Shown piece after piece: positions 56,101-63,963 of a stretch of 64,000 nt of DNA. Position numbers and translations under genes: made by a program. Origin of the DNA: a virus (lineage: Duplodnaviria; Caudoviricetes); IMG/VR virus record IMGVR_UViG_3300028805_000048; one strand, written 5' to 3'. The notes below the pieces were generated by a model. That model was not told the origin of the DNA and did no database searches. It was given only the letters and a program-made list of their open reading frames with translations. The first letter of the stretch is position 1. Each line of letters opens with the position of its first letter.

Positions 56101-57060
56101 ATGGAACAGCAAACACAATCTACTTTTGATGAAGATTTTAATTTGACAGAACAAAAAAAATTTCTTAGTCTATTAATTTATGATCCACAATGGGCATTAC
56201 TTAATGGATTAGAAGTAATACGTCCAGAGTATTTTGATAGTAATTATCTAAAAAATATATGTAAATGGATTAAACAATATGCGAAAAAATATAAAAATAT
56301 ACCAACAAAGTTAGTATTACAACAAAAAGCACAAACATTGATAAATGATAATCAATTATCTACAAAGGAATATTATAGATATCAAGAAATTTTAGATGAG
56401 ATTTTTACATTAGAACAATCTGATGAACTTGAATATTTTAAAGAAAAGGCTATAGAATTTGCAAGAACAGCAACTTGGAAAGCAGCTTTATTTGATGCTA
56501 CGAATACACTAAAAATACATAATTATGAAGAAGCTCTTGCTAAATTTAGAGAAGTTTTAGATCTAGGTTCAGAAAAAGATCTTGGAACAGATTTTAAAGA
56601 GCAAACACCTGATGAATTTTTAAAATTGTTAAATGAAAAATACGATAAAGCGAATATGATTCAGACAGGTATAGAAGGCTGGGATAAAGCTTTAGGAGGT
56701 GGATTTGCTAGAAATAATATACATATCATCGCAGCGTGTTTTTTAGGAAAAACAAAAATAAAAACAAATAAAGGAAAATTGAGTTTTGAAGAATTATCTA
56801 AATATACGAATTATGATGATTTAGAAATATATAGTTTTGATGGATCAAATAAAATTAAAACAAAAATAAAAAATGTTTTTGAAACAAAAAAAGTTAAAAA
56901 ATTAATGTATTTAAAATTTAATAATGGAAAATCTTTACAATGTACACCAGACCATTTATTTGTAATTAAAAATCCAACAAAAAACGATCCTTATATAATA
57001 TATGAAAATGGAATAGCTTATAAGCAGGCTCAATATTTAGGAGAAAATGATGAATTCTGA
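56101..57060 (+). CDS. Replicative helicase (gp41/DnaB) N-part fused to intein N-fragment
   Basis: IQTGIEGWDKALGGG...IHIIAA followed by intein block A CFLGKTKI and block B CTPDHLF. Confidence 0.9.
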   Translation: MEQQTQSTFDEDFNLTEQKKFLSLLIYDPQWALLNGLEVIRPEYFDSNYLKNICKWIKQYAKKYKNIPTKLVLQQKAQTLINDNQLSTKEYYRYQEILDEIFTLEQSDELEYFKEKAIEFARTATWKAALFDATNTLKIHNYEEALAKFREVLDLGSEKDLGTDFKEQTPDEFLKLLNEKYDKANMIQTGIEGWDKALGGGFARNNIHIIAACFLGKTKIKTNKGKLSFEELSKYTNYDDLEIYSFDGSNKIKTKIKNVFETKKVKKLMYLKFNNGKSLQCTPDHLFVIKNPTKNDPYIIYENGIAYKQAQYLGENDEF

Positions 57061-58123
57061 TACTTTTTGCGGTTATGTATACAAGATAACGAATATACTA
57101 AATAATAAGAGTTATGTCGGACAAAAATTCTCTCCTGTATTTATAGATAAATATTGGGGTAGTGGAGTTTATATTAGAAAAGCTATTAAAAAGTATGGTT
57201 TAGAAAATTTTAAACGTGAAATTTTATGTTGGTGCAAAACAAGAGATGAATTAGATGATCGAGAATTATATTATATAAAACAATATAATACCCTTTCACC
57301 AAATGGGTACAATTTAACATTAAATGTCTTTAAGTCTGGTAGAAAACAGAAACATTCTACTATAACAAAAATGAAAATGAGTCAAACACGATTAAACTAT
57401 TCAGACGAAAAGAAAAAAGAGATTTTAGATAAGTTTCATATGACATGTGAAAATAGAACTGAAGAAGAAAAATTAATTATACATAACAATAGAAGTAAAG
57501 CCATAAGATTTTCAGAAAAATTTCAAAATACTGTACATTCTGAAGAATATAAAGAAAAACAAAGACAAAAATCGATTGTTGTTATGCAGAATCCAGAAAT
57601 TAGAAATAAATTATCTATTACCTCAAAGGAAAATTGGAAAAATGAAGATTATAGAAATATGTGTATAAAAAATTTAAAACATAATGATTCAGAAATACAA
57701 AGTAAGAGGAGTATAAAAGGCAATATTATTAGAAAAACAAATGGATTTGATCAATATAATAAATCAGAAAGAGCTAAAGAGATAAGTAAAAGGAACGCCG
57801 AATATATGAGAGAATTGAAAAATAATATGTCTGAAGAAGAGAAGTATATATGTAGTTTAAAAAGTAAAATTAAAGTTTTATTAAGAAATGAAAAGCTTAA
57901 TAAAGAAGAAATAATGACTTTATTTGAAATCATAAAGAATCATGAACCAACTTATGATTTATATGATTCACCGAAAGACAGACTTTTAAACAAAAAATTT
58001 CCAAAAATAAAATTAGTTAAAAAAGAAATTATAGAACTCGATAAAGAAATACCTGTCTATGATTTAACTGTTGATGGAAATATACCTAATTTTCAATTAG
58101 ATGCTCAAGTTTTTGTACATAAC
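56737..58123 (+). mobile_element. Split intein (IntN 56737-57057; IntC ending 58123) carrying a GIY-YIG endonuclease
   Basis: Cys1 at 56737; block F/G VYDLTV...FVHN then Cys+1; splicing restores the Walker A AACPGGGKS. Confidence 0.88.
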
Positions 58124-58915
58124 TGTCCAGGAGGGGGCAAATCAAGAATTATGGCTTTTCTTACAAAACAAGCTGTTATGGCTGGAAAGCGTGTAATTTT
58201 TATATCGTGTGAACTTGATGAAACTGAGACCATGGCAAATATAAATTCTTCTATTACTGGTTTAAGTATGTATGATATATTAAAACCTGAAAATAGAGAA
58301 GAATTTATCAAAAGAATAACAAATTTTAAAAATACTTTCGGTGGTAATTTGAAAATCAAATTTTATGGACCAAAAACGGTTAATTGTGATACTATTCATA
58401 ATTACATACGAAAAGTCATGCAAGAAGAAAAAGAAAAATTGAATGGAATAGAATGGAAACCTGATTTTATTGTTGTTGATTATATGGATAATTTATTGCC
58501 GATACAGAAAATGAAAGGTAGTTTATATGAAGACGGTGGTGCTGTTGCTAACGATTTAAAAAATTTAGCAATAAGTTTTGATTGTCCGATTGTTACTGGT
58601 TCACAGCTTGGTAAATTTTCTTGGAATATAAAAGAAGGCGATGTGATAAGTATGGATTCTATTGCTGAATCTGCTGCAAAAGTACATCTTGCCCATTCAA
58701 TGACAACAGTAAATTCAAATCCTGGTGAAAAAGCGTTAGGAAGAGCTCGTTTATTTTTAGCTAAATCACGTTCAGGTAGTGCAAATTCTGTTGTTTGGGT
58801 AGAAAATGATTTACCAAGATGTCGTTTACGAGAAATAGATGAATGGAGTCCAAAAGATGTAGAAAATGAGTTTGGCGCGTTTAGTGTTAAATCAAGTAAC
58901 AATAATCGTAAATAA
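57047..58915 (+). CDS. GIY-YIG endonuclease - intein C-fragment - helicase C-part
   Basis: GYVY...YVGQ...YWGSG; HN|CPGGGKS; ISCEL, VVDYMD, TGSQ, LAKSR DnaB-family motifs; AGGAG SD at 57039. Confidence 0.9.
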   Translation: MMNSDTFCGYVYKITNILNNKSYVGQKFSPVFIDKYWGSGVYIRKAIKKYGLENFKREILCWCKTRDELDDRELYYIKQYNTLSPNGYNLTLNVFKSGRKQKHSTITKMKMSQTRLNYSDEKKKEILDKFHMTCENRTEEEKLIIHNNRSKAIRFSEKFQNTVHSEEYKEKQRQKSIVVMQNPEIRNKLSITSKENWKNEDYRNMCIKNLKHNDSEIQSKRSIKGNIIRKTNGFDQYNKSERAKEISKRNAEYMRELKNNMSEEEKYICSLKSKIKVLLRNEKLNKEEIMTLFEIIKNHEPTYDLYDSPKDRLLNKKFPKIKLVKKEIIELDKEIPVYDLTVDGNIPNFQLDAQVFVHNCPGGGKSRIMAFLTKQAVMAGKRVIFISCELDETETMANINSSITGLSMYDILKPENREEFIKRITNFKNTFGGNLKIKFYGPKTVNCDTIHNYIRKVMQEEKEKLNGIEWKPDFIVVDYMDNLLPIQKMKGSLYEDGGAVANDLKNLAISFDCPIVTGSQLGKFSWNIKEGDVISMDSIAESAAKVHLAHSMTTVNSNPGEKALGRARLFLAKSRSGSANSVVWVENDLPRCRLREIDEWSPKDVENEFGAFSVKSSNNNRK

Positions 58916-62960: not shown

Positions 62961-62964
62961 ATAA

Positions 62965-63083
62965 GCTGCTGAGAGGGTTGTAGTAACTGTAGTTAAGAGA
63001 TTTAGAGCTCCTTAACAAAGCAGATTCCCATAACGGACAATGCTCAGTAGAATCTCTAAATGGATCGTTATAAAAACTACAAA
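62965..63083 (+). ncRNA. Unassigned structured (pseudoknotted) RNA
   Basis: Five complementary segment pairs, some crossing (see findings). Confidence 0.45.
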
Positions 63084-63087
63084 TTTT

Positions 63088-63183
63088 GGGGTGTCATATA
63101 TTGTAAGATACATGTCGGTCAGGCCTAGGGTACAAATAGAGGAAAGCTATATGCTGTGAATGTTTACCGTCACCTACCCCAAA
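63088..63183 (+). ncRNA. Unassigned rod-like RNA
   Basis: GGGGTG/TACCCC terminal stem with nested helices. Confidence 0.4.
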
Positions 63184-63194
63184 CATTTTTAAAA

Positions 63195-63433: not shown

Positions 63434-63441
63434 TTTAAGGT

Positions 63442-63538
63442 TGAAAAGTTTGGTTTATGGAACCTACTATCTAATAAACTATATACCTTTATTAGCATCA
63501 TGATTGTGTAGTAGGTATGCTAATATAAAACTTTTTCA
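63442..63538 (+). ncRNA. Unassigned kissing-loop RNA
   Basis: Two hairpins whose loops share an 8-nt complement, inside a closing stem. Confidence 0.5.
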
Positions 63539-63539
63539 T

Positions 63540-63790: not shown

Positions 63791-63876
63791 GCAAGGTTAT
63801 ACCGTAGGAGTAGCGGGACAGACTGTAAATCTGTTGTCTTTGGACTCGGGTAGTGCGACTCTATCACCTTGCACCA
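63791..63876 (+). tRNA. tRNA-Tyr(GTA)
   Basis: ACAGA-CTGTAAA-TCTGT; long variable arm; atypical T-loop TGCGACT; CCA. Confidence 0.88.
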
Positions 63877-63883
63877 GTTTTAT

Positions 63884-63963
63884 GGGGCGTTAAATCTGGT
63901 TCTAGAACAGATTGCTTAGGATGTAGATCCAAGATAACATGTGAAAATCATGTGGCCCCGCCA
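63884..63963 (+). ncRNA. tRNA-like RNA ending in GCCA, with no canonical anticodon loop
   Basis: GGGGC/GCCCC-G-CCA acceptor-like stem plus three hairpins. Confidence 0.55.

Follow-up and report, generated by a model that had tools for sequence, protein, structure and literature searches.

Phage tRNA arrays are usually taken as codon-supply or tRNA-replacement kits. What, in such an array, is an RNA that has the arms and the CCA end of a tRNA and no 7-nt anticodon loop? The question is raised by an 80-nt element near the end of a 64,000-nt stretch of DNA (the window) taken from a 157-kb IMG/VR virus record (G000; 28% G+C, about 66% complete). An original prediction had described this element as a non-decoding tRNA mimic whose well-paired arms argue against decay.

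Layout of the element and its tRNA array

The end of the window runs into a long tRNA array on the + strand, ordered Ser(TGA), Thr, Asn, Asp, Glu, Ile(TAT), Pro, a low-scoring Tyr(GTA), the element and Gln; the tRNA-Gln lies past the window end and is followed by about ten further tRNAs. The element shares the strand of the array, ahead of which lies a strong sigma-70-type site (TTGAAA-17-TATAAT). The upstream region holds genes of replication and nucleotide metabolism, among them helicases, an IMPDH/GMPR-like enzyme, a MazG-like protein and RNase H. The DnaB-type helicase at 56101-58915 (+) seems split: an ORF at 56101-57060 ends with a match to an intein-splicing domain, and the overlapping ORF at 57047-58915 begins with a GIY-YIG (SegE-like) domain that is followed by DnaB_C. 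Two long non-tRNA spacers, at 62961-63194 (234 nt, after tRNA-Ser) and 63434-63539 (106 nt, between tRNA-Asp and tRNA-Glu), are without an Rfam match, and the remaining spacers of the array measure 4-13 nt.

The element occupies 63884-63963 (+) and forms a four-armed cloverleaf that starts 7 nt past the CCA of tRNA-Tyr(GTA), in agreement with the tRNA-like spacing originally noted. A check of the sequence likewise located the acceptor, the two hairpins and the T-like arm where they had been placed. The 5' strand of the acceptor-like stem, GGGGC (63884-63888), pairs with GCCCC (63955-63959) and is followed by G6, which stands opposite G71, and by an invariant linker U7-U8-A9; across versions of the element, this helix comprises five Watson-Crick pairs plus G-G, A-A or U-G at 6-71. 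The D-position hairpin (63893-63913) has a 6-bp stem, AATCTG/CAGATT, and a 9-nt loop, GTTCTAGAA, without G18G19; across versions, the loops at this position read GUUCUAGAA, GUCGCGAA or UGACGUC, and GG occurs in none. At the anticodon position (63915-63933), the hairpin runs CUU, a bulged A35 (63918), GGAU, the loop GUAG (63923-63926), AUCC and AAG. A variable region of 3 nt leads to the T-like arm (63937-63953), with a 5-bp stem, ACAUG/CAUGU, and a 7-nt loop, UGAAAAU, in which G53-C61, U54 and A58 are kept and G55 A56 replace Psi55 C56. The 3' end (63955-63963) consists of the GCCCC acceptor strand, the discriminator G and the predicted encoded CCA. That last feature needs one refinement, as the terminus is CCA in 12 of 14 versions and CCG in the other two.

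The neighbouring tRNA-Tyr (63791-63876, +) is of class II and scores 28.5 bits with the Rfam tRNA model (RF00005), against a gathering cut-off of 29 bits. Its T loop, UGCGACU, contains a non-canonical G55, and the unusual U54-G55 is common to this tRNA and the element. At this place in relatives, tRNA-Tyr comes in no fewer than three strongly divergent types; the T loop is canonical in some and AGCGUUA in one.

Predicted fold and response of tRNA finders

RNAfold folds the window element into a cloverleaf at -26.3 kcal/mol (z = -2.9), and 3 of 200 shuffled sequences fold equally well. For the window's own sequence, the program favours a shifted register of the T arm, while the minimum-energy fold is the exact cloverleaf with the 7-nt T loop in 9 of 14 homologues. 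The alternative register, with 7 bp and a triloop, was rejected and the original one preferred, because the former creates five mismatches at 55-71 across the homologues. At the anticodon position, both the consensus and the minimum-energy fold give 3 bp, the bulged A, 4 bp and a 4-nt loop, which is predicted to be sealed, with apical pairs 36-47 to 39-44 reaching P ≥ 0.95 in all 14 versions. A 5-bp anticodon stem with a 7-nt loop was not obtained; an 8-nt loop requires two predicted pairs to open and would read A-U-GUAG-R-U, with U33 and R37 retained. The element is probably a non-decoding RNA.

tRNA finders gave a consistent answer. ARAGORN left the element uncalled both at default and at -ps80 with introns, a setting that recovers the neighbouring tRNA-Tyr missed by the default run, and Rfam returned no match on the element at E ≤ 10, to tRNA or to any other family; RF00005 was also without a match at the homologous positions in L139, L141 and L142, and its cut-off is attained by none of the homologues. 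The lack of an isotype call had been anticipated, and the examination for a canonical tRNA score under another fold yielded none. The canonical elbow pairs G18-Psi55 and G19-C56 are absent, given D loops without GG and the T loop UGAAAAU.

Other RNA classes were considered as well. The default tmRNA search of ARAGORN was empty at the element, where pair 3-74 is G-C or C-G in place of the tmRNA identity pair G3-U70 and a stable D-position hairpin is present. YrlA (RF02553) produced weak matches only, at 31 bits versus a 69-bit cut-off, on ordinary tRNAs of the array and never on the element, whose ends sit in the acceptor stem, unlike those of YrlA in a long Ro-binding stem. A D-armless reading, in which the first hairpin serves as the anticodon arm, was rejected because the loop of that hairpin is inconstant in length and sequence. 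An MS2/PP7-type bulged-A operator, a CsrA GGA site, a Cas12a repeat (GUAGAU) and a tmRNA-like mini-ORF were also set aside, the partner sequences or conserved frames that they need being absent.

A conserved RNA family in uncultured phages

True copies of the element were found on about 20 viral or metagenome contigs, which reduce to 14 distinct sequences. IMG/VR was scanned with a 20-mer of the tRNA-Tyr anticodon arm and then with the hairpin-2 sequence, and JGI metagenomes with a two-block pattern (GGATGTAGNTCC, 9-11 nt, GTGAAAATCA). Two further scans of IMG/VR, built on the two types of D arm, retrieved known copies only and no differing apex. The element occurs once per genome: a covariance model, R1, which gives family members 80-109 bits and ordinary tRNAs at most 14 bits, detected no second copy in G000, and its scan of 100 other phage tRNA loci revealed no divergent one. 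A search with an exact 27-mer from the 3' half was empty, and the pattern had no true match among one genome per species of 185,579 prokaryote species. Chance pattern matches, unrelated and mostly in coding sequence, were discarded (L107, L114, L124, L127, L131, L132, L135 and L137, and L143 and L144 from GTDB). Among 50,697 phage records searched for cultured relatives by blastn and tblastn, only generic tRNA or helicase matches appeared, and locus searches based on one protein at a time, the RNase H or the methyltransferase, gave no IMG/VR relatives. Across the collections searched, the family is so far confined to a clade of uncultured phages.

The original prediction had proposed a homologue search with covariation analysis, and the 14 versions recovered covary in all four helices. 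Among 322 pair cells, 99.7% of the proposed pairs are standard, and double-sided change has occurred at 11 of the 23 pairs, every helix containing one or more of these. None of 500 shuffles attained the observed pairing or covariation, and slid registers reached at most 46% pairing. In the acceptor, two classes differ by a flip of pairs 2-75, 3-74 and 4-73 from G-C to C-G, seen in 7 of 14 versions, and G1-C76 is invariant. The first hairpin shows double-sided change in five of its six pairs, with changes at both ends; its loop varies between 7 and 9 nt and in sequence too, and in L122 the hairpin is wholly different (7 bp, TAGTAAT/ATTACTA) and the rest of the element is kept. In hairpin 2, pair 34-48 passes from U-A to C-G in three versions and pair 39-44 is U-A or U-G; in the T stem, pair 55-69 is C-G, U-A or U-G. 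Covariation of this extent in 14 homologues means that the fold exceeds chance.

Conservation is concentrated in the centre and the T arm. Invariant or nearly so are G1-C76, U7-U8-A9, G31, the bulged A35, GGAU-GUAG-RUCC, A51/A53/A54 and the T loop UGAAAAU, with 21 of the invariant or near-invariant positions fixed by the metagenome pattern, including part of the apex. The apex UGUAG(A/G) is thus invariant in all 14 versions with part of it pattern-fixed, and the invariance of GGAUGUAG.UCC and GUGAAAAUCA is partly imposed in the same way; unfixed positions adjoining the pattern-fixed ones are likewise conserved. The discriminator is G or A, and every copy has T (U) at -1 and G at +1. Positions 31-70 are 82-100% identical between contigs (at least 88% in 26 of 27 contig pairs), whereas same-anticodon tRNAs of those contigs have median identities of 59-85%. 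By this measure, constraint on the anticodon-position hairpin and the T arm is much stronger than on ordinary tRNAs of the same phages. Identical copies in L117, L128 and L130 stand in unrelated flanks, and conservation ends at TAT|G and after the CCA; the element is therefore a discrete gene with tRNA-like ends.

We also compared the element with 750 phage tRNAs, among which no parent was identifiable. The best identity, 0.71 to a tRNA-Pro, is only slightly over the background of unrelated pairs (95th percentile, 0.66), so that a recent parent is absent and the element does not behave as a recently mutated ordinary tRNA. A decaying pseudogene or a chance fold would account for the silence of all tRNA detectors and for a best identity barely above that percentile. 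This explanation is effectively refuted by compensatory change in four helices and by a core that outconserves real tRNAs, and we regard its probability as negligible. The same two observations uphold the earlier argument against decay. Judged from covariation and constraint, the element is a selected, tRNA-shaped RNA family, neither chance nor decay.

Genomic neighbours across relatives

Of 17 contigs, 16 have Tyr(GUA) or Val(UAC) as the tRNA nearest to the element, an adjacency that amounts to only about 5-6 arrangements, which are not independent. In most relatives, tRNA-Tyr lies upstream, either directly or across a non-tRNA insert of 184-677 nt. tRNA-Val(TAC) appears in three arrangements: 4 nt before the element, 7 nt after it, or 140 nt before it. 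The copy 7 nt downstream is intact in L138 and, in the same phage type, interrupted after GAGCATAT in L113, where the insertion opens an ORF and is possibly an intron or a homing-endonuclease insertion. In one relative (G002), the tRNAs that accompany the element cover all 20 amino acids, and another (G004) carries Leu(TAA, TAG, CAA), Val and Arg tRNAs; the element thus fills no decoding gap. Searches of the phage for a CCA-adding enzyme, RtcB, TGT, Pth2 and Pth found none, and PF01981 and PF01195, representing Pth2 and Pth, had no match in G000, G001 (95% complete), G002 and G004. A methyltransferase beside tRNA-Gln is absent from the relatives' loci.

Four relatives contain a conserved, structured non-tRNA RNA of about 221 nt between tRNA-Tyr and the element (L141:4973-5200, L142:9901-10121, L139:18355-18575 on the - strand, and L118:1054-1275), which is absent from the window. 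RNAalifold predicts 65 pairs for it, three with compensatory change; it contains a T-loop-like motif, GTTCGAA, and has no Rfam match. On the 3' side of the element, a segment at L001:1766-1905 (window 63964 onward), beginning AGTTAGGGAGTTTCTT, is conserved in L118, L116 and L123 and ends in a GGGAAC...GTTCCC hairpin and a T-run right before tRNA-Gln; in L121, it is placed after a different tRNA-like RNA. Directly 3' of the element, L121 (G001) has a CCA-ended tRNA-like RNA (ACCTCGT...ACGAGGTGCCA) with the T loop GTTCGAATC and an oversized centre.

A second odd tRNA-like gene lies past the window end at L001:3143-3250 (G000:C1, about 95146-95253) and is missed by default ARAGORN. It combines an acceptor GGGAAG.../...CTTCCC, a canonical T arm GGTTCGATTCC and CCA with an enlarged centre, in which the complement of an 8-nt loop, ACTAGTAC, lies within a long variable region. 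The phage clade thus bears several non-canonical tRNA-shaped genes.

Possible functions

The best explanation overall, to which we give about an even chance, is a stable, non-decoding tRNA-shaped RNA whose conserved hairpin and T loop let it work as a competitor or decoy. Transcription from the upstream promoter would yield the element together with the tRNAs; cleavage by host RNase P would take place at U-1/G+1, and 3' trimming at RCCA would proceed as for a tRNA. U at -1, G at +1 and an RCCA end are favourable features for bacterial RNase P. The acceptor/T-arm half would supply processing and stability, and the rigid hairpin with its bulged A, the apex UGUAG(A/G) and the altered T loop would bind a tRNA-recognising protein, for which the RNA would then serve as competitor or decoy. 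Of the original prediction, the maintained tRNA-shaped RNA is borne out by covariation and constraint, and its non-decoding character is likely rather than proven; the decoy for a nuclease or a sensor and the aminoacyl carrier that it offered are candidate roles.

The leading candidate for the bound protein, a guess on our part, is one that targets tRNA-Tyr, for instance a defence nuclease; the apex would copy U33-G34-U35-A36 of that tRNA. tRNA-Tyr is a known target of phage-defence nucleases, to which phages respond with their own tRNA-Tyr (PMC11555353, PMC13096335; compare PARIS and tRNA-Lys, PMC11464382), and the documented phage counter-measures to tRNA nucleases are replacement tRNAs, not decoys (PMC11555353, PMC11464382). 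Against mimicry of tRNA-Tyr stands the fact that one GUA triplet in a 4-nt loop is shared, where any triplet would match some anticodon; such a triplet would be a weak mimic of a 7-nt anticodon loop. In a more specific form of the decoy, unlikely in our estimate, the element would be a non-cleavable or sacrificial tRNA-Tyr look-alike, maintained next to the diversified tRNA-Tyr gene of the phage itself and absorbing a host defence nuclease or another tRNA-Tyr-directed factor. If this were true, dedicated mimic RNAs would join replacement tRNAs among the phage answers to immunity that targets tRNAs.

The main rival, somewhat unlikely in our estimate, is a t-element-like role as processing punctuation or stabiliser: the element would be a signal for RNase P and 3' trimming, itself a by-product, that fixes the 3' terminus of a non-tRNA RNA lying upstream and the 5' terminus of the RNA downstream. 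This role stays in play because the element directly follows the approximately 221-nt structured RNA in L141, L142, L139 and L118; in L128, L116 and L134, it comes after another conserved non-tRNA stretch, and a conserved segment, AGTT(TT)AGGGAGTTTCT..., follows it in G000, L118, L116 and L123. Plant-mitochondrial t-elements provide a precedent (PMC1920247), and an acceptor stem whose sequence is free to vary is as expected where only shape counts. Flanking real tRNAs, however, would already do the same job, and in G000, L129, L123 and L115 the element stands directly after tRNA-Tyr with nothing to release. Nor does punctuation account for a hairpin 2, bulged A, apex and T loop that hardly vary and that surpass genuine tRNAs in conservation. 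An unusual decoding tRNA is quite improbable. It would require the two apical pairs to open into an 8-nt A32-U33-GUAG-R37-U38 or a 6-nt loop, and the charged RNA would read a 4-base codon (CUAC), CUA/CUN or UAY. U33 and a purine at 37 are kept in 14 of 14 versions and position 44 is only A or G; a UAG-anticodon tRNA with an 8-nt loop occurs naturally in yeast mitochondria (PMC7609411), and G000 has its second tRNA-like gene with an 8-nt loop just past the window. Yet the tetraloop is predicted to be closed (P ≥ 0.95) above a stem with a conserved bulged A, the acceptor has five pairs and a purine-purine mismatch, and G18G19 and Psi55C56 are missing; the wholesale flips at acceptor pairs 2-4 are not what a fixed synthetase identity would lead one to expect, and relatives already have Tyr(GTA) and Leu(TAG, TAA, CAA) tRNAs.

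Two further readings rest on the company and the ends of the element. As a codon mimic, the apex U-GUA-G would pair with U33-U34-A35-C36-A37 of tRNA-Val(UAC), sequestering or escorting it. GUA is a Val codon, five pairs including one G-U could form, and the element adjoins tRNA-Val(TAC) in three different arrangements; the independent arrangements are nevertheless too few, and a 4-nt loop shut by pairs predicted to be stable would present the triplet poorly. We know of no precedent for capture of a tRNA by a codon mimic, and hold this reading to be very doubtful. Even less credence goes to an aminoacyl carrier for a non-ribosomal transferase, which is highly improbable. It would fit the NCCA end encoded in 12 of 14 versions, and the U54-G55 of the T loop recalls staphylococcal cell-wall tRNA-Gly, which has GUGC T loops. 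On the other side, acceptor pairs 2-4 flip freely, and no anticodon-independent synthetase identity applies because G3-U70, a long variable arm and G-1 are all absent from the sequence.

Comparison with known RNAs

A literature search found no paper describing such a design in phage tRNA arrays, and the family is apparently undescribed so far. Standard tRNA finders and Rfam are blind to the element, so that similar elements stay unannotated; the alignment and the covariance model R1 define a testable family. The element points to a second phage use of the tRNA shape, in binding tRNA-recognising proteins, directing RNA processing, or both, and is a candidate for RNA-based interference with tRNA-directed host functions.

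With elongator tRNAs (RF00005), the element shares the order of arms, U8-A9, a D-position stem from position 10, a T arm with G53-C61, U54 and A58, a purine discriminator, a CCA encoded in 12 of 14 versions, and a place in a tRNA operon with tRNA-like spacing. It differs from them in the bulged-A hairpin of 7 bp, closed by a 4-nt loop, in place of the 7-nt anticodon loop, in lacking G18G19 and Psi55C56, in the 5-pair acceptor with its R-R mismatch and in the 3-nt variable region. The T4 species 1 and 2 RNAs (rnaC and rnaD; NC_000866, 70908-71171) are likewise non-tRNA small RNAs of a phage tRNA cluster; they lie at the cluster end and are co-transcribed with its tRNAs, and in rnaC the ends pair and the T arm is of tRNA type. 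At 139 and 119 nt, however, they are longer than the 80-nt element and form no four-arm cloverleaf; R1 scores 10.4 bits on rnaC, against at least 80 within the element family, and does not detect rnaD, which marks them as unrelated.

Also tRNA-shaped are mascRNA (RF01684) and the tRNA-like RNAs of murine gammaherpesvirus 68 (MHV68; PMC11092647, PMC12680231), which are matured by tRNA-processing enzymes, end in CCA and are not used in decoding. They belong to another domain of life and show no sequence relationship to the element, on which the Rfam mascRNA model has no match, and the MHV68 RNAs keep anticodon-type loops. Plant-mitochondrial t-elements, which are RNase P/Z cleavage signals beside other transcripts, and the tRNA-punctuation model share with the element a tRNA-like shape for which decoding is not needed (PMC1920247); t-elements are poorly conserved, whereas the centre of the element is more conserved than real tRNAs. 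By analogy, the element may be regarded as akin in concept to a set of non-charged tRNA look-alikes that includes mascRNA, the MHV68 RNAs, t-elements and T4 species 1 RNA.
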